Below are positions 21,970 through 45,516 of a DNA stretch of 64,000 bases, piece after piece. The DNA is from a virus. The notes under the pieces are model-generated. The model was not told where the DNA came from, made no database searches, and worked only from the letters and a program-made list of their open reading frames with translations. The stretch covers positions 10,333-74,332 of the IMG/VR virus record IMGVR_UViG_3300027759_000075; one strand, written 5' to 3'. The stretch's first letter is position 1; the number at the start of each line of letters is the position of its first letter. The position numbers were made by a program, and so were the translations under genes.

Positions 21970-22085
21970 TATTCGCCTCTAAAATGTTCTACCCAAAAAT
22001 AAACAATAGTTGCTACCATTGCGGCTACACTCATTGTAACTAGGCCTTCGATTAACCAAGTCTGTTCCATAAACCAATCAATCAT
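21969..22085 (-). CDS. 38-aa membrane micro-protein
   Basis: Read by hand; ATGA overlap with the ligase stop and TAATG overlap with the next gene. Confidence 0.5.
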   Translation of the reverse strand: MIDWFMEQTWLIEGLVTMSVAAMVATIVYFWVEHFRGE

Positions 22086-23461
22086 AATTTTTCTCCAGGT
22101 TCAAATCCACGAAAACGAACAAAACGAGGGAATCTTAAACTGTAAGTTCCGTCTTGATTTTGTGTGACTGCGTCTGCTTCAACTTCAACCACATTGCCAA
22201 GTAGCTGATCTCTGGCACTCCAATATTCATCACGATTAGCATCGGAAAGGCCACTGCCCACATTAACATTAATACGACGATCATTATCGACTCCTTCACA
22301 TATTATAGCACCCAAGCGGCCGGCATTGCGACCTGTGCCTTGTTCAAATCCAACAATATTTAAGTCTACCGTGATTGTAGGTTTCCATTTCATCCAGTGA
22401 GTTGATCTACGACATTCATATGGAGCACCCATGTCTTTTATAACAATACCTTCAAACCCGGCCGCCACAGAATCTTCTGCATAGCGACGCATGACATCAT
22501 GACCTTCGGCTGTAGCTAGGTCTACAGTAATACCGTCCATGATACGAACACAATCTGTAGCATCAAATACTGCGCGATATTCTTCCAAGATAGCCAGGCG
22601 TTTATATTGTTGGGCATTCCAAAAACCACGCTCAAAGTCGGCTAACGGTACAACATCAAACACACTATAAGTCATGCCATCTGTTTTGACATCTGTTTTG
22701 CGTTGTGCCTGCTTCATTAATGCTTGAAAACTTTCACCAATGATCTCACCATCTAATACAAACCCATGTTGGCTAGACTGTAATAGTTTGGCAAATTTAT
22801 TTCTAATATCTTCTAATGACTCTACAATCTGTGGAAAGTTATCAAACGGTTTGCCGTTACGGCTGTAAAGATTTACGGTGGTTTTAGTTACCACAGCCAA
22901 CACACGCACACCATCCAACTTCTGTTCCAGGCGTTTAATACCAGTCATCTTGGCTGTATGCTTTTCACTGTCTGTGGCCAGTTGACAAGTAAACACTGGA
23001 ATTTTCCATTCAGTATTACCAAGAACTTTGTTTAGAGTCTTTTCACTAATGCCACAGCGTAGGTCTTTAATAATAACTCTACGAGCAAGGTTGTTCCACT
23101 CTACTGAATCGAATTGTTCGCTCATGAACTCAATAGCTGTCTTGGCATTGTGTCCGGTTAGACTGCGAGTGCGTAGACCTTCCAGCATGGCCCAAAACTT
23201 TGGCCAAGGATTAGACTTGTGCTCTAGCCCTATAGTTTCTGGAACTTTCTTTACTCCAAATACATAGTAGGGGTTGTAGGCCTGATAGCAGTTGAACAAA
23301 AAGCATTGAGCATTAGACGACCCTAACTTACTTGCCATTAGGGCCTTTTCAATGACGGATTCTTTGTGTAAACGGCTGTCGCTTGATTCCAGGTCTCTAA
23401 TCCAGTCTGCGGCCACTTTGATCTCATTAAATTGCTCGGAGGTGAAGTCTATCGAGTCCAT
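22082..23461 (-). CDS. ATP-dependent DNA ligase (T4 gp30-like)
   Basis: EQKLDGVR (motif I), SRNGK, LDGEI, VFDVV, EGIVIK, WMKWKP, SLRFPRF. Confidence 0.95.
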   Translation of the reverse strand: MDSIDFTSEQFNEIKVAADWIRDLESSDSRLHKESVIEKALMASKLGSSNAQCFLFNCYQAYNPYYVFGVKKVPETIGLEHKSNPWPKFWAMLEGLRTRSLTGHNAKTAIEFMSEQFDSVEWNNLARRVIIKDLRCGISEKTLNKVLGNTEWKIPVFTCQLATDSEKHTAKMTGIKRLEQKLDGVRVLAVVTKTTVNLYSRNGKPFDNFPQIVESLEDIRNKFAKLLQSSQHGFVLDGEIIGESFQALMKQAQRKTDVKTDGMTYSVFDVVPLADFERGFWNAQQYKRLAILEEYRAVFDATDCVRIMDGITVDLATAEGHDVMRRYAEDSVAAGFEGIVIKDMGAPYECRRSTHWMKWKPTITVDLNIVGFEQGTGRNAGRLGAIICEGVDNDRRINVNVGSGLSDANRDEYWSARDQLLGNVVEVEADAVTQNQDGTYSLRFPRFVRFRGFEPGEKL

Positions 23462-35913: not shown

Positions 35914-36498
35914 TTAAACAAGTTCATATCTTGCTGTACCTCTATTAAAAATAACAAGACCCTGTTTGACTAATTCAAATATAATAGATTCAGATTCGGC
36001 ATGTAATTTATTATGTTCTGCTACTGTAGTTAAAAATAAATTTTCAAGTTTATTATTTCTTTTATTACCGTCTATATGATGTACTATTTCCCCTTTTTCT
36101 ATTCGACGTTGTAAATAGGTTTCCATTACAAATATATGTTCTCGAATACATCTATATCCGCCCGGGCGATAAGGATAATCTTTACCAATATATACTTCTG
36201 GATAGCCTTCTTTACCTGAGATTACTGTTCCAATTCTATTTGTAAATTTATTTTTAATTTTTGCTTGATATCCTGCAGATCCCGCTAATTTTGCTACACC
36301 TATTTTAGAAATACAATTTTTACAGTAGGATTTAGATTCTGGGTCATATATTTTGCCATTTTTTGCTTTAGTAAATTCAGCAAAACAATGATCACATTTC
36401 CAGCGTATTATTTTTTTGGTTCTGGTATATTCTGAAAGTTTACCAAATTTGCTTTTCTTTGTGTAATTATTTGTTTCTGTTAATTCTTCTATAAACAT
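35914..36498 (-). CDS. HNH homing endonuclease
   Basis: EH..VME..L.R...GEIVHHIDGNKRNNKLENL...EHNKLH; N-terminal CxxC pairs; very AT-rich. Confidence 0.85.
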   Translation of the reverse strand: MFIEELTETNNYTKKSKFGKLSEYTRTKKIIRWKCDHCFAEFTKAKNGKIYDPESKSYCKNCISKIGVAKLAGSAGYQAKIKNKFTNRIGTVISGKEGYPEVYIGKDYPYRPGGYRCIREHIFVMETYLQRRIEKGEIVHHIDGNKRNNKLENLFLTTVAEHNKLHAESESIIFELVKQGLVIFNRGTARYELV

Positions 36499-36565: not shown

Positions 36566-36886
36566 TTAAATGCGGAAGCTAGTACCGCAACCACAGCGGT
36601 CTTTTTCCAAGGGATTTATAAATTCAAAGCCTTCGTTTAGACCCTGGCGTACATAGTCTACTTCTAATCCTTCAAGATATGCAGAACTTTTAGGATCAAC
36701 TACAACCACAAATCCATCTTGCTCAAAGGCAATATCCTCTGAATTTACAGTATCAATATATTCCAACACATAAGCAAGTCCAGAACATCCGGTAGTTCTT
36801 ACACCCAGACGAATACCCATGCCCCGACCACGTTTGTTTAAATTGGCCACAATTTTTTTAGCGGCTATTTCAGTCACTGATATCAT
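36566..36886 (-). CDS. iscA: Fe-S cluster A-type carrier IscA
   Basis: GVRTTGCSGLAY, GLNEGFEF.NP, CGCG.SF. Confidence 0.95.
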   Translation of the reverse strand: MISVTEIAAKKIVANLNKRGRGMGIRLGVRTTGCSGLAYVLEYIDTVNSEDIAFEQDGFVVVVDPKSSAYLEGLEVDYVRQGLNEGFEFINPLEKDRCGCGTSFRI

Positions 36887-37257
36887 TAGTGTTTGCTTTT
36901 GTAATCTGCTACTGCAGCCTTAATAGCGTCTTCCGCAAGGATACTACAATGGATCTTAACTGGCGGGAGTGCAAGTTCCTCTGCAATTTGAGAGTTCTTA
37001 ATTGCTCCGGCCTCGTCCAGCGTTTTGCCCTTGACCCATTCTGTGACAAGTGAGCTCGAAGCGATCGCCGACCCACAACCATAAGTTTTGAATTTTGCAT
37101 CTGTTATAATTCCATCTTCAACTCGGATCTGTAATTTCATCACGTCACCGCAAGCGGGGGCTCCCACCATGCCAGTGCCAACAGTATCATCTATTTCTAA
37201 TTTTCCAACGTTGCGTGGATTTTCGTAGTGATCAATTACTTTTTCTGAATAGGCCAT
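36886..37257 (-). CDS. iscU: Fe-S scaffold IscU
   Basis: DHYENPRNVG, GAPACGDVM, FKTYGCGSAIAS, LPPVKIHCS; promoter TTGTAA-17-TATAAT at 37275-37303. Confidence 0.97.
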   Translation of the reverse strand: MAYSEKVIDHYENPRNVGKLEIDDTVGTGMVGAPACGDVMKLQIRVEDGIITDAKFKTYGCGSAIASSSLVTEWVKGKTLDEAGAIKNSQIAEELALPPVKIHCSILAEDAIKAAVADYKSKH

Positions 37258-37312: not shown

Positions 37313-37648
37313 TTAAGAACGACGCTTCATTGCCGCTTTGGCATTAGAATCTACTACCGCACGGGCTTGGTCCACGCTCATGCCAGTAGCAACCTCTGTG
37401 TCACCTTTGAATCGAACCACATTAGAATTTGGTTCCAATGGCTCTAGTATGTTGCTCAGTGGTTCTTGACTGATTAGGTCGCCTAAATTGTCTGCGGTAA
37501 CATTCACTCCTAAACTCTTGGCTAGATCAATAAAAGCTGTTTGACTGATTTGTTTTTTGGCCGTTTCGTCTTGACTGCGTCCAAGCAAAAACTGGCTTAA
37601 TGCAGCCAGTCGTTGTGTGTTAGGGTCTGCAACTTCGCGGATTAACAT
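37313..37648 (-). CDS. Hypothetical protein, probable head-associated
   Basis: Starts MLIRE; coupled to the upstream gene. Confidence 0.5.
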   Translation of the reverse strand: MLIREVADPNTQRLAALSQFLLGRSQDETAKKQISQTAFIDLAKSLGVNVTADNLGDLISQEPLSNILEPLEPNSNVVRFKGDTEVATGMSVDQARAVVDSNAKAAMKRRS

Positions 37649-38496
37649 TATCTACGTTCACGTCCTAGACCAGCGGGTTCAATATTGGCATCCATTTCTG
37701 CATCAATATCTTCTTCACCGTTGACGGTTGGAATTTCAGCATCAATAGCAACTTCCTCTTGACCTGGCACAGGTGGTGCAGGTTCTTCACCTGGAACAGT
37801 AGGAGCTTGCCCAGTTACTACGCCCAATGCCTGCTCCAGTTGAGTCTTGGCGCCTTGCAAATTTTGTAACAGTCCAGCCAATGCAGCTGTAGCGTCTGTG
37901 TTAAACTGCATGGCTTGATCAACCCCAACTTCGTTCTTGATCTGGTCAACCAAGGCTGGTAAATCTTTAAACTGCATGGCACTGATTTGTTCACTCATTT
38001 TTTGCACTTGGTCAACCATGTCTTGACTGGCCAACACAACTTGAGCCTGCTGAACTTCGCTAGCTTCGCGCAATCGACGAGCAATTTTGCTTTCTGCCAT
38101 GGCCATCATTGTAGGATCGTTCATTTGTTTTTGCAATTGGGCAATTTCTTCTTGTTTGGCTCGGATAGTGTCTTGTATTTGCTTTTTCTTTTGTTGAACC
38201 TGGGCGGCCATCAAGGCTTGTTGTTGTTGAGGATTAGCAGCGGGTTGACCTGCAACAGCTTGAGTGGCTAGAGCCTGCTCTAACATTACCAATTTAAGAT
38301 ATGCTGGGTTACGTTCACTTTGATGGAACTCAGGAGTGCGACGGTGTTCGCTGATCAATGAGCGTACACGGTTTAATAGGCCTTGAGCTTGGCGGCGAGA
38401 AATAGTATCAAATTTGATACTGGTTCCAAAATAGCTTTCAAAAACCTTAGCGGCTTGTTTTGTTGGGTTGGCTACGGCCAGTTCTTGCAGTTTCAT
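37648..38496 (-). CDS. Probable prohead core/scaffold-like protein
   Basis: Starts MKLQE; Gln/Ala coiled coil; LRE|ASE site; acidic Pro-rich tail ending LGRERR; TAAATA upstream. Confidence 0.45.
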   Translation of the reverse strand: MKLQELAVANPTKQAAKVFESYFGTSIKFDTISRRQAQGLLNRVRSLISEHRRTPEFHQSERNPAYLKLVMLEQALATQAVAGQPAANPQQQQALMAAQVQQKKKQIQDTIRAKQEEIAQLQKQMNDPTMMAMAESKIARRLREASEVQQAQVVLASQDMVDQVQKMSEQISAMQFKDLPALVDQIKNEVGVDQAMQFNTDATAALAGLLQNLQGAKTQLEQALGVVTGQAPTVPGEEPAPPVPGQEEVAIDAEIPTVNGEEDIDAEMDANIEPAGLGRERR

Positions 38497-38944
38497 TATC
38501 GAATCCCTTTTGTTGAATATATTTAGCCCATTCTACACATTTGGTTAGTTGATTTTCTAGTTGTTTTTTGTGTATGATCTTGCTTTCTAGCTTGGTTAAA
38601 ATAGTTTCACGTAACGCTGGGCTTTGACTACGGTCACCTACAGCAGCTCTAGCATTGATATCCTGTGTCAATGCATTTAATTTGTTGTCTACTGTTAGCA
38701 GTTCACGTGCTGTATTGTAGGCACGGTTTTTGTCGGCTATACACCAACTGAGTGCAGTTTTAGTACTGTGGAATGTGCCCACTTCTGTGGCTGAACAAAA
38801 TACTTGGTATCCAGGACGCAACGGAACAATGCGATATCGTCCAAATGCTTCGTATTCGCCTGCATCGGTTTGCCAGATCAAATTAGGAGTAATATTCTTA
38901 AATTCCTGGCGAAACAGGCGTTCAAATTCTTGGTCTGGCTTCAT
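38447..38944 (-). CDS. Hypothetical protein
   Basis: 165 aa; ATGA-coupled. Confidence 0.55.
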   Translation of the reverse strand: MKPDQEFERLFRQEFKNITPNLIWQTDAGEYEAFGRYRIVPLRPGYQVFCSATEVGTFHSTKTALSWCIADKNRAYNTARELLTVDNKLNALTQDINARAAVGDRSQSPALRETILTKLESKIIHKKQLENQLTKCVEWAKYIQQKGFDNETARTGRSQPNKTSR

Positions 38945-39204
38945 TTAAGAACGTAGTGAGATATAAGATAAATTACCGAAGCTGCTAAAAATCCAATGAT
39001 TCCAACACCCCACCCAATTAATCTATCTGTGTTTTTTTCACTTAACTTACTTACACTGGATTTAACTTCTTGTACCATAGTGCAAAGATGTGCAATGCTT
39101 TCGCTCATGGCGGACATTTTATCTTCTAGTGCATTATAGCGTTCAGCACACAGTTCCACATGCGCTTCTAGGCTTTTCTTTTCAATATCCGTAGCTTCAA
39201 TCAT
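38941..39204 (-). CDS. Small coiled-coil protein with C-terminal TM (holin/XhlA-like architecture)
   Basis: LEAHVELCAERY coiled coil followed by LIGWGVGIIGFLAASVIYLI. Confidence 0.5.
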   Translation of the reverse strand: MIEATDIEKKSLEAHVELCAERYNALEDKMSAMSESIAHLCTMVQEVKSSVSKLSEKNTDRLIGWGVGIIGFLAASVIYLISHYVLK

Positions 39205-39248
39205 AGTATTTTCTCTATTTTTGTGGATCGGCTCTTGTGCAGATCCTA

Positions 39249-39677
39249 TTAATTATTTATGGAAATAGGTGCAAACCAAATGTTTTGTTTGGGTCCGTCG
39301 GTGACTAAAATAGATTCAATATCTGGAGTGTTATTGAGTTCACGCAACATAGGAACTCCGTTGGCATCTGCTCTTAGCACTTGTGTAGGGTCGTTGTTGG
39401 GGCCATAAATGCCATCGGTTTCTGTTTCAAATTCAAACATCCATCGAGTACCAGTTTGATCCGGTATTGGGTCGGTAAGAGCAAATAATTGTGTGCGAAG
39501 GCCCAGGATTTGTGTAAGTGTTTCCCAATTGCGTTGTTGATTACGACTGCGATTCCAAGATTCAGTATCTTGTATCAATTGTCCAGCACGATCCCGGAAT
39601 GGCATATGAGCTGATTTAAAATGACCAGTTATGCCGGTCACGGTAATATCAAATTGAGTTTGACAGGCAAACTTCAT
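39249..39677 (-). CDS. Hypothetical protein
   Basis: T.FDIT.TG..G and RNQQRNWET..Q.L.LR motifs. Confidence 0.6.
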   Translation of the reverse strand: MKFACQTQFDITVTGITGHFKSAHMPFRDRAGQLIQDTESWNRSRNQQRNWETLTQILGLRTQLFALTDPIPDQTGTRWMFEFETETDGIYGPNNDPTQVLRADANGVPMLRELNNTPDIESILVTDGPKQNIWFAPISINN

Positions 39678-39928
39678 TTGGAGTTCCTACCGAGTTCATA
39701 TAGGATTTCAACCTGTTCACACAAGTGGTCGAGTTCTGGATCGTCTCGTCGAGCTTGTAAAATTTCTACCCAACGTTTTGAATTTTCTAAATCTTTAAGT
39801 TCTTGTTGCAAGGCCGGATCTTGACTGTACAATTCTCGGTTGGTATTACCGGGTTGCCGGGCATATACTGTACGTCCACCATCAGGACTTTCAAATATTG
39901 TTACTTCGGTAATTTTATTAACCATCAT
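39674..39928 (-). CDS. Hypothetical protein
   Basis: IFESPDGGRTVYAR motif. Confidence 0.6.
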   Translation of the reverse strand: MMVNKITEVTIFESPDGGRTVYARQPGNTNRELYSQDPALQQELKDLENSKRWVEILQARRDDPELDHLCEQVEILYELGRNSK

Positions 39929-39960
39929 ACCAGTATTTAAGTTATTATATTAAAGTCAAC

Positions 39961-39984
39961 AAAAAACCCACCGAAGTGGGTTTT
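39961..39984 (-). terminator. Rho-independent terminator with cUUCGg tetraloop
   Basis: AACCCAC-TTCG-GTGGGTT followed by a T run on the - strand. Confidence 0.9.
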
Positions 39985-40004
39985 GAGCATCAATAAAAAA
40001 TTGA

Positions 40005-40394
40005 TTAGGTTGACAACTTGAAACCAACATTGGTTGAGCTGTTGATTTGATTAACACCAACAACACCAGCTGTGTTAGCTGCAGCTGTTGCAACTGTGGT
40101 GTTAGCAAATGCGCCAGTAGGATAGAGACCAACGCTGAGGGCTGTGCCATCAACTTGATACATCGCAACTGTGGTTGTTTGCTGAAGAGCTTGCAACACG
40201 TTAGCCACGAAACCGTTAACTTCACCTTGTGTGTTCATTGTGTTAGCAGCAACGAAACGGAAAAAGTCTAGTTTAGGACCTTGTGGTTGAACTGAATTAC
40301 CAGCTAGGCTGGTACTTTGTGGCAATGGACCATTCAATGTGTCTAATGCAAATACTGGTTGTGATCCACCAGAAACTACGGTAATATAAGCCAT
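40005..40394 (-). CDS. Probable abundant small virion protein
   Basis: Own TAAATA promoter, AAGGAG SD and strong terminator; Ala/Thr/Val/Asn-rich with few charged residues. Confidence 0.55.
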   Translation of the reverse strand: MAYITVVSGGSQPVFALDTLNGPLPQSTSLAGNSVQPQGPKLDFFRFVAANTMNTQGEVNGFVANVLQALQQTTTVAMYQVDGTALSVGLYPTGAFANTTVATAAANTAGVVGVNQINSSTNVGFKLST

Positions 40395-40463
40395 TTTAAA
40401 TCTCCTTAATATATGGACACTGAGGTCCTGCTAATATTTACCTTTTGGGACAAAAAAGTAGAG

Positions 40464-42377
40464 TTAGGCTGGTTGTTTTGAGTTGTTTATTTCGCGATTG
40501 GCCGCTGTAAATCCACCGGCTAAGCGGTTAACAGCCTTGGCCATGCCGGCTCCTGTGGCCATTACCCAGCCTTCTTGACCCGGATGTTGTAGATCCAATT
40601 GATTTAAAATATCCATCTTGATATCGTGTAGCAAGACCCAGGCTGTAAATGCCGCGGCCATGCCATCTAAATTGCTACGTGGGCTTTGGATATATTCTAC
40701 AATGTTGTTGAACTTTTTAGGGGTAACGTGTTGTTGGAGCCATGGTCCAAACTGCGCCAATAAATTATCAAACCCAGTGCCTACTCTACTATTAATATAG
40801 TCTATACATAATCGAGGCAAATCAGTGATTTGTAATGCACGAAGATCTGTAGGATCAAACAGCTGATCAATTGCAGCACCTTGACTGTTGTACACATCTT
40901 TAACTTGCTGTACTAGCTGACGATTTGGTCGTACATTTTCTTTGGCATACACCGGCTCTAATAGCAGTAGTCCAGGAACCTGTTTAAAATCAACACGGCC
41001 AATAGGCTCTTTAGGAGAACCAGGTTCTGCATACCGTGTGTGCATGGCAATACCAACTTTGCTATTGGTAATACGTTGACCTACATCGCTTGCCACTGGA
41101 ATTTTATATTCTACAGTGTTGGGTGTAAACACAAAATTACCGGCTTGTTCAGGAGGACGCTGTGTGTACAACAGGTCGCCTTGCACATATCCTTTAAAAT
41201 CTTTAGGAACAGCAGATTCTAACATGGGCCATAATTGAACATACAAAGGCAACAGTGTTTCAACGCGAGTAGCTGGTCGGCCTTGTGCTTCAGCATCACG
41301 ATCACGCTGTTCCAAATGTCTTGCCACTTGTCGTGGACTTGTAAACAGACCATTATATCCTCGAGCTGTAAATCCTGATACATCAGTAAGAACAAATGTT
41401 CCCTCTGGATCACGACCAAATACTAGAGCAGGTTTGCCATCCCACTTGACTGTGGTGGTTTTGCCTGTGTCAGCTGAGGTATGTTTGACAATGTCTAGAG
41501 CTTTTTTAATACCTGCACTGCCGCTACGGAACACAAGATCTTCTAAGTGTTCGATGCCTTTGGCACGGCCGCCTTGAACCTCGGCTTCAACAATGACCTG
41601 CATGCCTTGATTCACAATACGATCACGTAGTTTGGCTAAGAAGTTTACATCACTAACCGGTTGATATAGTTCTGCACTTTCAAGGAATGGCAGGCCTTCG
41701 CGTTCCATGTGTTGTTTAAAGTCTGCTAATTTAGCGTCACGGTTGGGATCTGTGCTAAGTGCTTGTAGAATTGTTTCTACACTGGCCAAGTCTTGACGTG
41801 TAGCTGTTTTATTCAATAATAATTTGGCTACAGCATCTGGATTGTCAGTAATAATTTTGTTGGTGGCACGATCAGCAATTCCAGCAATTTGATTCAATTT
41901 GTAACCCATGCTTTTGGCAACTGAATTCATTAGCACATTGCGCTCACGACCTTTGTACTTTGAATCTGTGGGCATGGCACCAAGTACAAATTTGCTCCAA
42001 GGTATGTTGTTTAAAAACATAAAGTCTGTTTGCACATACCCTAGGTCTGGACGACCGTTGATAGGTGTTTTAAAATGTACGCCAGCGCCGGTTTGTTTGA
42101 CCCAGTCTTCGGGTTTTTGTTTTTGGCTGGTTGCCCAGCGTGTTAATTGTGCTATTAATTGTTCTTTGGTTAATTGTTTGGCGTCAACAGCAATATCCAA
42201 ATCGCCTGAGGTGTCTTTAATGCCGGTTGATCCCAGGGTGTTGTTTTGTAGGTCAAGTCCTGGCAACATTTGCTCAAGCCATGCTAGGGTTGTTTTTACG
42301 TCAGTCTGATTAATGCGTTGGGTTAACGCACGGCCGTTGCCGTCTTTGAACACATTACCGCCTTCAAGTATGTTCAT
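40464..42377 (-). CDS. Two-domain protein: Pol-beta-type nucleotidyltransferase plus KxDG ligase-like domain
   Basis: LGSTG..SGDLDIAVD...QTDFMF in the N-terminal half; TVKWDG, VQGDLLY and QEGWVM..K in the C-terminal half. Confidence 0.6.
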   Translation of the reverse strand: MNILEGGNVFKDGNGRALTQRINQTDVKTTLAWLEQMLPGLDLQNNTLGSTGIKDTSGDLDIAVDAKQLTKEQLIAQLTRWATSQKQKPEDWVKQTGAGVHFKTPINGRPDLGYVQTDFMFLNNIPWSKFVLGAMPTDSKYKGRERNVLMNSVAKSMGYKLNQIAGIADRATNKIITDNPDAVAKLLLNKTATRQDLASVETILQALSTDPNRDAKLADFKQHMEREGLPFLESAELYQPVSDVNFLAKLRDRIVNQGMQVIVEAEVQGGRAKGIEHLEDLVFRSGSAGIKKALDIVKHTSADTGKTTTVKWDGKPALVFGRDPEGTFVLTDVSGFTARGYNGLFTSPRQVARHLEQRDRDAEAQGRPATRVETLLPLYVQLWPMLESAVPKDFKGYVQGDLLYTQRPPEQAGNFVFTPNTVEYKIPVASDVGQRITNSKVGIAMHTRYAEPGSPKEPIGRVDFKQVPGLLLLEPVYAKENVRPNRQLVQQVKDVYNSQGAAIDQLFDPTDLRALQITDLPRLCIDYINSRVGTGFDNLLAQFGPWLQQHVTPKKFNNIVEYIQSPRSNLDGMAAAFTAWVLLHDIKMDILNQLDLQHPGQEGWVMATGAGMAKAVNRLAGGFTAANREINNSKQPA

Positions 42378-43564
42378 TAGAGACCCTGAAAACCCATTAG
42401 TAGTAACAATCCATCCGCCGCAGGGTTGCCTGTTGATTTTACTTGTTTAGTGCCAGTTAGTTTTGCCGCTGTTGCGCCAAGTGCCGGTAGGCCTTTAGCA
42501 ATTGCTGGATCCAGTTGTTGTTTTAATGTTTGTGCCATTCCTTCTGCATCTTGAGTGCTGCCCTGAGTACCACCCGGTGCAATAGTTGACTGACCGGTGG
42601 CATTGCCGTTGCCTGCGCCCGGAGCTGATGTTTGTGCCAATCCTGCCTGTTGAACCAATTGTTTAAATAATTCTTTTTCGTTGGTCGGTGCAACAGCAGG
42701 TGCAGGTGCTGCTGGTGTTGCAGGTGCGGGGGTTGCCGGTGGTTTAGCAGTTGCTGGTGTTGCAGGTGTAGGTTGACCAGCAACCGGTGCTGGTGCGTTT
42801 CTTTGCGCCGATCTTGCTGCCAATCCGCCAACAGGTCGTGCTGTGGGTTTTACAGTAGGGATTGCTTCTTCAAGATCCGATGTCATTCCTTGTATTCCAC
42901 CTTTTGGTTTACCATATGCCTTTATTGTATTTTTTCCTTTAGGACTGTTGGCAACACTGGCAGGCATCTGTCCAGGTTTTGCTGGTGCAGTGGCAGAAGG
43001 AACTCTACCAAATGTTGCCGCAGGTTTCTGTCCTTGCACTTGTTGTTGTAGAGCTGTTGCTTGTTGCAATGGTGTTTGTTGTGGCTGATTAGGATTGCCT
43101 GATTTAGCTACATTAGTTTTACTAATTGGGGCCGTGGCCGCGCCGGCACTTGCGGTATTAGTTTGTGTTGCAGGCGGTTGTTGTGCAGGTGCCCCACTAT
43201 TGCTTATTTGTTTGACCAGACTGACAATTTTATCTTTGTTAATAACATTTGGCAAATACATACCACCAAGTAAATTTTTGTTTACAAATGCTAATAATGC
43301 TTGTTCAAGTTGCCCGTTTGCACGGGCATTTGGATTGGTTCTTAGCAACTGTCTTTCATATTTTTTCCATATAGGATAGGCCTTATTAAACAGCTCACCA
43401 GTTTTACGATCTGCAGATGCATCTTGATAAGCACCTTTAAAATTTGAAACAGCACCGCCTACTTTTTGAGCGGCTCCCTTGGCTTTGTTTGCAATCCATT
43501 CAGAAGGAAGTGTAACTTCTTCTAGTTCAAATTGTTTCTTTTTTGTTAGTTCATGAATTTGCAT
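42377..43564 (-). CDS. Pro/Ala/Gln-rich low-complexity protein, probable internal head protein
   Basis: Starts MQIHE; LEE sites; PATPAPATPAAP repeats. Confidence 0.5.
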   Translation of the reverse strand: MQIHELTKKKQFELEEVTLPSEWIANKAKGAAQKVGGAVSNFKGAYQDASADRKTGELFNKAYPIWKKYERQLLRTNPNARANGQLEQALLAFVNKNLLGGMYLPNVINKDKIVSLVKQISNSGAPAQQPPATQTNTASAGAATAPISKTNVAKSGNPNQPQQTPLQQATALQQQVQGQKPAATFGRVPSATAPAKPGQMPASVANSPKGKNTIKAYGKPKGGIQGMTSDLEEAIPTVKPTARPVGGLAARSAQRNAPAPVAGQPTPATPATAKPPATPAPATPAAPAPAVAPTNEKELFKQLVQQAGLAQTSAPGAGNGNATGQSTIAPGGTQGSTQDAEGMAQTLKQQLDPAIAKGLPALGATAAKLTGTKQVKSTGNPAADGLLLLMGFQGL

Positions 43565-43799
43565 CTGTGCGTCTCACTGTGCGTGTAAATTTGCCTGGGT
43601 CACGCTGATTAATAGCGTTGAGTAATTTTCTCTGTAGATTCTGAGCATCTTCTACACTGTAACTGGAGTCAATCTGCTCTAGCAAGCGTATAGCACTAGA
43701 TATAATGTTGGTGGCGCGGTTTTCAATAACATGGCGTTGATCACGCTCAACATACATTGAGTCTAATTCTTCCAATAAACTACGTGTTTTCTTTTGCAT
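43551..43799 (-). CDS. Hypothetical protein
   Basis: 82 aa (MQKKTRSLLEEL...); TAAATA upstream. Confidence 0.6.
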   Translation of the reverse strand: MQKKTRSLLEELDSMYVERDQRHVIENRATNIISSAIRLLEQIDSSYSVEDAQNLQRKLLNAINQRDPGKFTRTVRRTDANS

Positions 43800-43819: not shown

Positions 43820-44383
43820 TTATTTATTCGGTTTTAAATGGTTTGCCCGGATCTCTATCAATGGAATTATGCAAGGATGGGCCATAACCCATGCAATAGT
43901 ATCAGCAATGTGGGTTAACTCTAACCATGTTTCATGCCCCGGAGCATTATCGTTTAATCCGCCAGCAATAATGTGTGTGGTCTTAATATTGTTTAATCCA
44001 TTTAACTGCAAACTACGGTCTTTTAACGCTCTTTTTTGAATTGAATAGGTGCCATATAGTTTGTCTTTGGCTTTATTATCGTTTATACCTATGTACTCTG
44101 CTGTGCTTCCGATATTAATAATGTGACCATAGATTCCAAGTTTAGCCCACTCCTCGTGTGTTGTCTCTAATAAAGCTAGTTGACCGTTACCACAGATAAA
44201 AGAACTATTAATAAATATGGTGTAGTGAGCAATTTGTTGTCTAAAATGTTGTTCGCTACCTGGATCCCAAAATCTTAAATCATACCCTGTAGCTCGACTA
44301 GCAAACTCCGCAGAAGGAAAACGTTGTTTTACTGCGCTAGCCACTGTCGAATGATATGGATTTCCAGAACATAATATATTCAT
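43820..44383 (-). CDS. Short-chain dehydrogenase/reductase-like protein (divergent)
   Basis: FINSS, HIINIGS and YSIQK (YxxxK); degenerate glycine motif. Confidence 0.65.
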   Translation of the reverse strand: MNILCSGNPYHSTVASAVKQRFPSAEFASRATGYDLRFWDPGSEQHFRQQIAHYTIFINSSFICGNGQLALLETTHEEWAKLGIYGHIINIGSTAEYIGINDNKAKDKLYGTYSIQKRALKDRSLQLNGLNNIKTTHIIAGGLNDNAPGHETWLELTHIADTIAWVMAHPCIIPLIEIRANHLKPNK

Positions 44384-45516
44384 AGTAGTTGACTCCATTC
44401 TGGAAACACACTTTTATAATCAATTTGACGAATTTGGTCAATTTTTTGAATAAGCTCCCAGAACGCCAAGTGTGGAGTATTGTCGATTTCAATCCCGTCT
44501 AACAACTTGTGCAATTGCGGATAGTTTGAGAATCTGTCAGATAAAATTTTCTTTGCAGTAGAATTTAAGTGCACAATATTAAAATCTCCAATAGCACGTT
44601 GAAAAATTAAATTTACAGGATCTCCATATCGATTAGTTAAAAAATTAGATTGGTACCAATCTACTAATTCTGTTAGATAATATAAATTTAAATAACTCCA
44701 AGTACAATTTATGTTAAACATATGATTATGAGGCATATTTTCTTGATACCATAATAAATTATTAGTTACCGATTTCCAATCTGCACCAGTTCGTTGATAA
44801 TTAAATCTATCGCCTACGTCATCGATGCTAAAATATAATTCAATTAACTGACATTCTCCCCACAAATTTAATAATTCTTGTGTGGCTTGTTGTGTACCAT
44901 TGGTATTATAAAATACACGAACATTGTCAAGGCCTTTAACTTTTTTTATTTCTTTAAGTAAATTAATATGGTTATTGCTCATCAGCGGCTCGCCGCCACC
45001 ATGAAAGTGCAAAGTTTTTATATTTTTAAGTAATTTTGAATCAAATGTTTCAAGTTGATTAAATTTTTCATATTTGAATTGATCGATTGTCTTAAGGGGG
45101 TAAAGTTTTTGATAGTCAGATACCCACGCTGTACTGTTGTGTGGGCCACATATAACACATTTTAAATTGCAAAGATTTCCTACGCTGTAATCTAAACCTT
45201 GTGGTGCATTTAAATCAATGTCGGTATCATAATGATAGTTTTCATATAAATTTTGGCTGGCTAAGCGACGACTTACTAATCCGTTTTCTTCAGCTTTGTA
45301 ACAACTAGAACATCCGGGAATAGGAGTATCTGTTTCTACACATCGTTTTAATTCTGCACGTTCTGGGCCATTCCAGATGCTATCTAAATCAAATACCTCA
45401 GACGTTTTAATATATCCTTTAAAGAAACTGCATGGATTATAACCTAATTGACCGTTGTAGGACCATATGGCAAGATTTTTATATATTTCATAACAGAAAT
45501 ATTTCTTGTCTTTCAT
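44380..45516 (-). CDS. Radical SAM protein with N-terminal auxiliary-cluster (Twitch/SPASM-like) Cys
   Basis: CNLKCVIC, GGEPL, YNTNGT, FSID; extra Cys in the N-terminal region. Confidence 0.88.
   Translation of the reverse strand: MKDKKYFCYEIYKNLAIWSYNGQLGYNPCSFFKGYIKTSEVFDLDSIWNGPERAELKRCVETDTPIPGCSSCYKAEENGLVSRRLASQNLYENYHYDTDIDLNAPQGLDYSVGNLCNLKCVICGPHNSTAWVSDYQKLYPLKTIDQFKYEKFNQLETFDSKLLKNIKTLHFHGGGEPLMSNNHINLLKEIKKVKGLDNVRVFYNTNGTQQATQELLNLWGECQLIELYFSIDDVGDRFNYQRTGADWKSVTNNLLWYQENMPHNHMFNINCTWSYLNLYYLTELVDWYQSNFLTNRYGDPVNLIFQRAIGDFNIVHLNSTAKKILSDRFSNYPQLHKLLDGIEIDNTPHLAFWELIQKIDQIRQIDYKSVFPEWSQLL

Follow-up and report, generated by a model that had tools for sequence, protein, structure and literature searches.

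Bacterial LigD, the polymerase-ligase-phosphoesterase fusion of non-homologous end joining (NHEJ), occurs with its domains in variable order. A viral protein, PgVPolX of Phaeocystis globosa virus 16T, is described in the abstract of its report as carrying out gap filling, lysis at deoxyribose phosphate (dRP) and apurinic/apyrimidinic (AP) sites and NAD+-dependent sealing in vitro, in the frame of base excision repair (PMC5537341). A 2022 review of phage DNA polymerases lists the enzyme of African swine fever virus (ASFV) as the only viral member of family X. Here we describe a gene from a 64,000-nt stretch of phage DNA (positions 10,333 to 74,332 of IMG/VR record IMGVR_UViG_3300027759_000075; this whole stretch is referred to as the window), whose product joins a domain resembling minimal family X polymerases (mini-PolX) to a ligase-like domain known as DUF6267. 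A counterpart of this architecture, PgVPolX, has been characterised from a giant virus. The reading that we favour, tentatively and at slightly less than even chances when taken whole, is that the gene encodes a polyprotein of two enzymes, a mini-PolX and a DUF6267 ligase, which is loaded into the prohead, cleaved, and serves to fill and seal DNA.

40464-42377, minus strand: the whole open reading frame (ORF; protein P0001), an uninterrupted frame of 637 codons encoding 637 aa.

The window comes from a large phage represented by a 74-kb fragment (estimated completeness 22%), which also encodes ribonucleotide reductase, GroEL, ClpX and a UvsW-type helicase. The ATG of the ORF overlaps the stop codon of the upstream gene within the sequence TAATG, an arrangement from which the two genes are probably translationally coupled. 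When the entire protein was used as query, Pfam returned DUF6267 alone (E 7e-30, best stretch residues 391-627), PHROGs returned an unnamed family, and a single-sequence search of the PDB found no related solved structure. A complete relative of 344 kb, with terminal repeats, encodes a homologue that is 71% identical. The protein had originally been singled out, from the letters of the DNA alone, as a probable virion-packaged nucleotidyltransferase-ligase fusion (hereafter the original prediction). The motifs on which that prediction drew are all in place: LGSTG at residues 48-52, GDLDIAVD at 58-65, QTDF at 116-119, KWDG at 311-314, QGDLL at 399-403 and EGWV at 602-605, with KAVNR at 614-618. 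They are not chance resemblances, as few or no exceptions to the following residues occur among homologues that share, for the most part, 31-50% identity with the window protein: G49, G52, S57, G58, D59, D61 and D118 in the N half; H277, D280, K311, D313, G314, G321, R322, D401, F417, P419, N420, H446, K587, E602, G603, K614 and R618 in the C half. Equally well founded were the two candidate h-x-E cleavage sites, ILE5|G and IVE264|A, which are conserved across the family, the lack of an oligonucleotide/oligosaccharide-binding (OB) domain after motif V, where just about 20 residues are left, and the existence of a second DNA ligase near 22 kb. The latter is a canonical ATP-dependent enzyme, encoded at 22085-23461, with a DNA_ligase_A_M domain and an OB domain.

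To describe the two halves separately, profiles A1 and A2 were built from stand-alone homologues of the N half and of the C half, respectively. The features of the N-terminal domain are as follows.

41688-42362, minus strand: mini-PolX domain, residues 6-230, a modelled Pol-beta palm and thumb followed by a short helical extension (AlphaFold2, Foldseek and VIA).
42195-42233, minus strand: GS...DxD metal-binding motif, G49-S50 ... D59-L-D61, invariant or nearly so.
42024-42026, minus strand: putative third catalytic carboxylate, D118, in the strand VQTDFMF (23/23 in A1).

The AlphaFold2 model of this domain, made with alignment A1, has a predicted local distance difference test score (pLDDT) of 91.5. 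In a Foldseek search of the PDB, family X polymerases occupy the ranks throughout 1-50 among the matches listed, with Pol beta, lambda, mu and Thermus (Tth) PolX aligned at E values of about 1e-4, probability 1.0, over 180-200 columns. VIA, a fold search independent of Foldseek, gave the same answer: the nine best chains are all family X enzymes (Z 8.0-10.3, 157-176 residues aligned), the matches comprising Pol beta, Pol lambda, Pol mu, TdT, Tth PolX and ASFV Pol X. Pol beta aligns over 164 residues of its palm and thumb (139-335) with Z 10.3 and a root-mean-square deviation (rmsd) of 3.1 A, and ASFV Pol X (5hr9) over 157/176 residues with Z 8.9. Terminal uridylyltransferases (TUTases), poly(A) polymerases, CD-NTases, OAS, MenT, CCA-adding enzymes and antibiotic nucleotidyltransferases match over about 90 residues of the palm, with Z values of 7.2 or less. 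Because of the PolX-specific thumb and of the two-subdomain layout, which is that of the minimal ASFV enzyme, the N domain is more than a generic nucleotidyltransferase of the Pol-beta superfamily, and the model makes it very likely that it has a PolX-type fold. Within the model, G49-S50, D59, D61 and D118 lie on the expected helix-loop-strand elements.

The palm begins at residue 6 with nothing before it, so that the 8-kDa dRP-lyase domain and the fingers domain, with its helix-hairpin-helix (HhH) motifs, are absent. By analogy with ASFV Pol X, which lacks these parts too, their absence would mark a "minimal" subtype rather than exclusion from family X. At the level of sequence, the Pfam profiles DNA_pol_B_palm (PF14792) and DNA_pol_B_thumb (PF14791) found no match at E of 1 or less in the window's own record and gave single noise-level matches (0.08 and 0.22) in scans of 23 N-domain homologues; in the homologue from the complete relative, one thumb match below threshold (E 0.024) coincides with the predicted thumb. 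PDB searches with the profiles of both domains returned nothing meaningful. The ESM Atlas yielded viral hypothetical clusters only, with weak NTP_transf_2 and DNA_pol_B_palm leads that are consistent with the assignment and are not evidence for it.

The C-terminal half contains the following features.

40467-41585, minus strand: predicted ligase-type nucleotidyltransferase domain, residues 265-637, Pfam DUF6267 (Pfam E 7e-30, AlphaFold2 model and fold matches).
41436-41447, minus strand: motif I, KWDG, with K311 the predicted AMP acceptor (K311, D313 and G314 each 23/24).
41169-41183, minus strand: motif III-like QGDLL, with D401 invariant by conservation analysis.
40587-40922, minus strand: insert of 112 residues (486-597), modelled as helical throughout, separating motif IIIa from motif IV.
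40563-40574, minus strand: motif IV, EGWV, with E602, G603 and V605 invariant.
40524-40538, minus strand: motif V-like KAVNR, with K614, V616 and R618 invariant, reading K-x-V-x-R instead of K-x-K.

In the AlphaFold2 model of this domain (pLDDT 88), KWDG stands at the end of a strand, as motif I. The motif order I, Ia, III, IIIa, IV, V is canonical, with FGR322 as Ia, QGD401LL as III, F417TPN as IIIa, E602GWV as IV and K614AVNR618 as V. Judging from these motifs, K311 would sit in the nucleotide pocket and accept AMP. The domain departs from textbook ligases by the absence of an OB domain, by the 112-residue helical insert and by the K-x-V-x-R form of motif V; motif III has D for E. Foldseek found nothing below E 1e-3, the best match being the Trl1 adenylyltransferase (E 7.6e-3), and most of the matches listed are ligases (Trl1, LigIV, archaeal DNA ligases, T4 Rnl1 and Rnl3-type enzymes). 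In VIA, run against 48,161 representative chains, the top 12 matches are all ligases (Z 5.9-7.0, rmsd 4-5 A, 160-204 residues): NgrRnl leads with Z 7.0 over 183 residues, followed by REL1 (6.7), Trl1 (6.6) and T4 Rnl2 (6.5), with Sulfolobus, LigIV, LigIII and Prochlorococcus ligases lower in the list. The Z values are individually modest; the one-sided list agrees with the motif order, and we consider a ligase-type fold for the modelled domain to be probable. The RNA and DNA ligases are tied in these scores, and the fold therefore does not decide the substrate. Sequence comparisons add little: the ligase profiles PF01068, PF09414 and PF01653 gave no match to the C domain, for which Pfam finds DUF6267 only, and hhalign found nothing between the C-domain profile and the phage's own DNA ligase. 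Against gp66 of Agrobacterium phage Atu_ph07 (see below), hhalign aligned KWDG with KLDG, but with a probability of 1%. Altogether, the searches made domain by domain speak for the fold calls of the original prediction, namely the Pol-beta superfamily for the N domain and a KxDG ligase-type fold lacking OB for the C domain.

The family is large. At least 3958 related cluster representatives were found by a word-indexed search, many of them on contigs of 250-340 kb; an exhaustive search of a library clustered at 50% identity gave 1559 related representatives; and the DUF6267 half occurs in 320 records of cultured phages, mostly cyanomyophages. The full-length protein is 60-96% conserved across hundreds of contigs. 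Their distribution shows each half to be a module in its own right: of 151 proteins (150 representatives and the query), 58 have the order N-C, 7 the order C-N, 38 N alone and 47 C alone, so that the pair occurs, in either order, in 65 of the 151. In several long relatives a HIGH-type (NMNAT-like) nucleotidyltransferase domain is fused directly after DUF6267, and others carry HAD/NT5C, DUF2608, DUF5661 or Amidoligase_2 domains. An NMNAT-like gene beside the PolX-DUF6267 gene was not found in the window; in the complete relative such genes lie 45-115 kb away. A full-text search of the literature found no paper naming DUF6267.

Both domains begin next to a potential processing site, and related sites occur in a block of genes surrounding the ORF.

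42363-42377, minus strand: leader MNILE (M-x-h-x-E), with a predicted prohead-protease cut after E5, where h-x-E stands before GGN, leaving GGN.
41586-41687, minus strand: linker, residues 231-264, with the conserved peptide FLAKLRDRIVNQGM and a predicted cut at IVE264|A (E264 21/24).
37313-43799, minus strand: co-oriented conserved block of small or low-complexity proteins around the gene, four of which, including PolX-DUF6267, start with M-x-h-x-E.

Among relatives, h-x-E directly precedes 79 of the 81 GGN[VIAT][FW] motifs that open the N domain, whether terminal or internal, and it is found within 14 residues before the H-x-E-D motif in 74 of 90 C-domain starts. The FLAKLRDRIVNQGM peptide, together with h-x-E, also precedes some stand-alone C-domain proteins. 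An M-x-h-x-[ED] start is present in 52/140 representatives. Within the window, six of 90 ORFs start with M-x-[LIVFM]-x-E, and four of these six belong to the 12-gene block at 37313-43799 (Fisher p 0.0025); between orthologues of the block genes, conservation is higher in the leaders than in the protein bodies that follow. Many relatives have a longer leader with two sites, MRLxE...LxE|GGN or M[RK]hxE[LF]...hxE(G/A)ARIxH, which we take to resemble the 10-residue capsid-targeting sequence of T4. The targeting and processing positions of the T4 sequence have been described (PMC9026906). Leaderless relatives begin at the predicted cut points, with M|GG in gp65 of Atu_ph07 and in three representatives and with MS..HLEHLED in cyanophages; such starts are what a removable extension predicts. 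A gp21-type Peptidase_S77 is encoded by the complete 344-kb relative, and the window's own record, 74 kb long and 22% complete, yielded no head protease. The sequence FLA[KR]LRDRIVNQGM (residues 246-259), which stands just before the inter-domain h-x-E, recurs near the N-terminus of the stand-alone DUF6267 proteins P0184, P0164, P0128 and P0231; a role as a helix for docking or targeting is possible.

A homologue of the N domain has been found in virions. AUZ94877.1, a stand-alone PolX-like protein of Atu_ph07 encoded four genes downstream of a gp41-type helicase, matches the N-domain profile with E 2e-30 and keeps the GS..DxD..D residues. Computed molecular masses match Table S5 of PMC6102473 exactly, and AUZ94877.1 is therefore gp65 (32.16 kDa) of that table, where electrospray ionization tandem mass spectrometry (ESI-MS/MS) of virions is reported to have identified gp65 by 10 unique peptides covering 36.8% of the protein. 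Its neighbours gp53-gp64 and gp67-gp69 were also detected in virions (PMC6102473). The upstream gene, gp66, overlaps that of AUZ94877.1; its product has a weak match to Pfam RNA_ligase (E 0.002) and the motifs KLDG, EGVVF and KTK. In the same genome, 10 of the 11 consecutive virion proteins gp53-gp63 (L084, MF403008.1 39484-50592) begin with M[RK]W.QL.E, and gp63 begins with MRLFQLLE; eight, of about 29-31 kDa, look paralogous, and none of the 11 matches the PolX-like or DUF6267 profiles. Virion packaging, as put forward in the original prediction, is thus supported indirectly, by the conserved h-x-E leaders, by the gp21-type protease of the relative and by the presence of gp65 in Atu_ph07 virions, and we hold the scales to be tipped slightly towards packaging of the PolX-DUF6267 protein.

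These elements can be assembled into a tentative scheme. The polyprotein would be made together with the other proteins of the block and brought into the prohead by its T4-type leader. At E5 and E264 a gp21-type protease would cut behind h-x-E. The products would be a mini-PolX with GGN... as its N-terminus and with a three-aspartate centre formed by D59, D61 and D118, and a DUF6267 ligase, both of which would travel with the DNA. The two enzymes would then repair DNA by filling short gaps and sealing nicks, whether in the genome as packaged or as it enters the cell, or else at an early stage of infection. Precedents for such a base-excision-repair role would be PgVPolX as the nearest and the ASFV Pol X/ligase pair as the next. 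For the function as such, DNA gap filling and nick sealing, we see the chances as even.

Several points weigh against this scheme. At the level of folds, the ligase match has Z 6-7, below the level that is safe by itself, and the motifs, K311 among them, were placed by their order and by secondary structure rather than by superposing K311 on a known catalytic lysine. Pol beta's 8-kDa lyase and fingers domains are missing from the N domain, and the PDB, Pfam and hhalign searches, which were empty or at noise level, connected neither half by sequence with PolX or a ligase family. The lack of an OB domain, together with the RNA ligases at the top of the tied list, leaves RNA as a possible substrate. 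As to packaging, the Atu_ph07 preparation was purified with polyethylene glycol (PEG) only and contained single peptides of RecA-like protein and ribonucleotide reductase, as well as peptides of single-stranded DNA-binding protein (SSB), and the ligase-like gp66 was not detected in the virions (PMC6102473). Moreover, gp65 itself has no leader, and the DUF6267 proteins of cyanophages are both leaderless and located in the replication module; packaging is therefore not a property of the whole family. Conservation of E-GGN could be structural or catalytic rather than serve cleavage, and fusions in "polyvalent" proteins may reflect co-delivery and not a shared pathway.

The genes of cyanophages add to the DNA context of the family. 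S-WAM1, Syn9 and S-PM2 each carry DUF6267 as a stand-alone gene, with the gp41 helicase/MazG on one side and the primase region on the other. Six-frame searches of these three genomes, in which controls behaved as expected, found no PF01068 or PF01653 ligase domain, while the complete 344-kb relative has the ATP-dependent type, PF01068, only. This agrees with the listing of gp30 among the genes missing from marine cyanophages (PMC2993671). DUF6267 is the only ligase-like gene seen in S-PM2, Syn9 and S-WAM1, which supports a DNA-directed role of the fold. None of the sampled records of cyanophage DUF6267 genes is annotated as a virion protein, 60 of 60 reading "hypothetical protein". Of the alternatives to the favoured reading, the one that fares best is an intracellular replication or repair enzyme which is not packaged, fills and seals gaps in lagging-strand maturation or repair, and has h-x-E as a structural element. 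Such a role would suit the conserved place of the gene next to those for primase and helicase, seen in Atu_ph07 and the cyanophages as well as in the phage group of the window, the leaderless cyanophage versions, and the retention of E-GGN even in internal copies. It accounts poorly for the extra M[RK]hxE[LF] leaders of many relatives, absent exactly where the leaderless forms begin, for neighbours that share the leader and include two matches to virion PHROGs, and for the detection of Atu_ph07 gp65 and its neighbours as virion proteins by mass spectrometry. In addition, the phage already has a canonical DNA ligase. We therefore regard an exclusively intracellular enzyme as doubtful.

Three further observations concern the cyanophage loci. 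One or two "cytidyltransferase" genes (Pfam CTP_transf_like) directly follow DUF6267; their domain is the HIGH-type nucleotidyltransferase that several long relatives have fused to DUF6267. Those of S-WAM1 (L001 7173-8228) and Syn9 (L094 4236-5384) start with MRFRQFIIEA and MKKFSAFLSEA, respectively, sequences that look like capsid-targeting leaders; the adjoining DUF6267 proteins have none. In S-PM2 (L095, NC_006820.1 103025-104804) DUF6267 is split, with profile positions 1-157 in S-PM2p141 and positions 156-376 in a second frame of 437 aa that overlaps the start of the "cytidyltransferase" S-PM2p142. The split is either a frameshift, a sequencing error or a natural fusion of DUF6267 to a nucleotidyltransferase.

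RNA repair or tailing comes next. Here the C domain would be an RNA ligase and the N domain would add nucleotides to RNA 3' ends (tRNA CCA, for example), countering anticodon nucleases. Agreement with this proposal is found in the missing OB domain, in the top, though tied, folds (NgrRnl, REL1, Trl1 and Rnl2, with the Z values given above), in the Trl1 adenylyltransferase domain as best Foldseek match, in the HAD/NT5C-type phosphatase domains of some relatives, which could heal ends, and in the weak RNA_ligase match of Atu_ph07 gp66. The DNA ligases, however, score within 1 Z unit of the RNA ligases, the DUF6267 genes of cyanophages sit in the replication module of genomes with no other ligase, and the window protein has no kinase or 2',3'-phosphoesterase partner. 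The N domain matches PolX by palm and thumb; CCA-adding enzymes and TUTases match by the palm only, with Z 5-7. The original prediction had leaned towards RNA/tRNA repair or a protein- or nucleotide-modifying pair; neither this reading nor tRNA tailing, cyclic-nucleotide synthesis or AMPylation is the best fit to a PolX palm and thumb, as the similarity to CCA-adding enzymes, TUTases and CD-NTases ends with the palm (about 90 residues, at lower Z). With the PolX-DUF6267 gene also syntenic with primase and helicase, a DNA context, DNA filling and sealing is better supported than RNA/tRNA repair, which we consider unlikely.

Much less probable still is an effector that modifies proteins or nucleotides (an AMPylase, a CD-NTase-like signal synthase or a minimal nucleotidyltransferase), co-delivered with an unrelated adenylyltransferase in a fusion that would reflect co-packaging. 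Pol-beta nucleotidyltransferases are common effector domains of polyvalent virion proteins (PMC5512222), and some relatives indeed string their domains together with Amidoligase_2, HAD or a HIGH-type nucleotidyltransferase; against this, CD-NTases, OAS, AbiEii/MenT-type and antibiotic nucleotidyltransferases match the palm only (Z of 6 or less), the thumb is PolX-specific, and the N and C halves pair in both orders in 65/151 proteins. Finally, structural proteins inside the head, catalytically dead and enzyme-like in fold only, as their place in a block of small, fast-evolving, low-complexity proteins might suggest, can practically be dismissed in view of the invariance of all catalytic-type residues across homologues 31-50% identical and of the full-length conservation of 60-96% in hundreds of contigs.

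The gene order around PolX-DUF6267 is kept in relatives down to 62% identity. It runs from primase, helicase, variable genes, an 82-aa protein and a low-complexity "MQIHEL" protein to the PolX-DUF6267 gene, and then through five small proteins and proteins of 282 aa and 111 aa to IscU and IscA. The DnaB-type helicase, the primase and IscU/IscA were named from their sequences and from the annotation of relatives, not by family search. The original prediction had placed the gene among putative head genes. This is borne out in part only: two block members match PHROG "virion structural protein" families, and the block is flanked by primase/helicase and IscU/IscA. A setting among head genes as such was rejected, the head protease being about 69 kb away in the complete 344-kb relative. 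The proteins of the 37313-43799 block are probably virion-internal. Four matches to the T4 late promoter TATAAATA were found in the window, a number expected by chance, and none is near the PolX-DUF6267 gene.

Individual neighbours, all on the minus strand, have features of their own. The gene at 42377-43564, which is the one probably coupled through TAATG to the PolX-ligase gene, encodes a 395-aa low-complexity protein rich in Ala, Pro and Gln, with the conserved leader MQIHE[LI]T. In relatives this protein measures 236-517 aa, and its body is 32-37% identical or unalignable; its first residues and a second site, (V/T/L)(D/N)E|G, are kept. A 165-aa ORF at 38447-38944 starts with MKPDQEFERLF (MKQDQEFERMF in relative L055), which is similar to MKTYQEFIAE, the capsid-targeting sequence of T4 internal proteins; its product may be a further head-cargo protein. 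At 36566-37257 lies a pair of genes, named from sequence, for an IscA-like protein (106 aa, C-terminal CGCG) and an IscU-like protein (123 aa), present in all relatives examined. The 378-aa protein encoded at 44380-45516 contains CxxxCxxC (CNLKCVICG) and is probably a radical SAM enzyme; its slot, between the helicase and the virion-protein block, is variable, with different genes in relatives. The 194-aa protein encoded at 35914-36498 carries the HNH-type motif HHIDGNKRNNKLENL, is absent at the matching position in relatives L030, L051 and L055, and is probably a mobile homing endonuclease.

If the activities of the proposed polyprotein are real, phages possess a minimal PolX, DUF6267 is a new family of ligases, perhaps supplying the one that seems to be missing from T4-like cyanophages, and virion-delivered DNA repair becomes a new class of injected cargo beside Alt, the internal proteins and the virion RNA polymerases. 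A still broader picture can be drawn, to which we give little credence as a whole. Large T4-related phages would inject a protease-matured repair kit consisting of a minimal PolX and a new ligase family, sometimes with NMNAT-like or HAD modules, which mends nicks, gaps and abasic sites left by host defences or by packaging before phage expression starts; DUF6267 would be a DNA ligase family, possibly NAD+-using, and the "missing" ligase of marine cyanomyophages. In this picture the N-terminal glycine exposed by cleavage, or by removal of Met in leaderless forms, might act as a lyase nucleophile. The use of NAD+ is a speculation prompted by the recurrent NMNAT-like partner.

Among known systems, PgVPolX offers the closest likeness, uniting in one chain a PolX-type polymerase at the N-terminus with a ligase domain at the C-terminus (PMC5537341). 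Going by the published abstract, the ligase half of PgVPolX is homologous to NAD+-dependent LigA-type enzymes, whereas that of the phage protein is DUF6267, with no detectable sequence relation to a ligase family; PgVPolX has a Pol-beta-like core, and the phage protein palm and thumb only; and PgVPolX comes from a eukaryotic giant virus, not a phage, with no leader, cleavage signals or packaging reported in that abstract. ASFV Pol X (174 aa) is likewise a minimal palm-plus-thumb enzyme of family X. It differs in being encoded apart from the ligase, which in ASFV includes an OB domain, and in showing no detectable sequence similarity to the phage protein. ASFV repair enzymes are reportedly present in virions. 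LigD shares with the phage protein the presence of polymerase and ligase in one repair polypeptide; its polymerase, however, is of the archaeo-eukaryotic primase type and not PolX, and its ligase has an OB domain (1vs0 was matched at only Z 5.1). The RNA ligases Naegleria NgrRnl/Rnl5, T4 Rnl2, T. brucei REL1 and the ligase domain of fungal Trl1 have an OB-less adenylyltransferase fold of the kind that is probable for the C domain, for which they are the best VIA matches (Z 6.5-7.0 over 171-196 residues), at scores that tie with those of DNA ligases. None of them has a polymerase partner, and the phage domain is set apart by its helical insert, its motif III D and its K-x-V-x-R motif V. Lastly, the phage protein differs from the internal proteins and Alt of T4 in that its cargo would be of the DNA-repair type and that its leader, known here from sequence, is down to 5 residues; it resembles them in the short leader ending in (L/I)-x-E, which in T4 loads cargo into the prohead and is then removed, the enzymes being injected with the DNA (PMC9026906).

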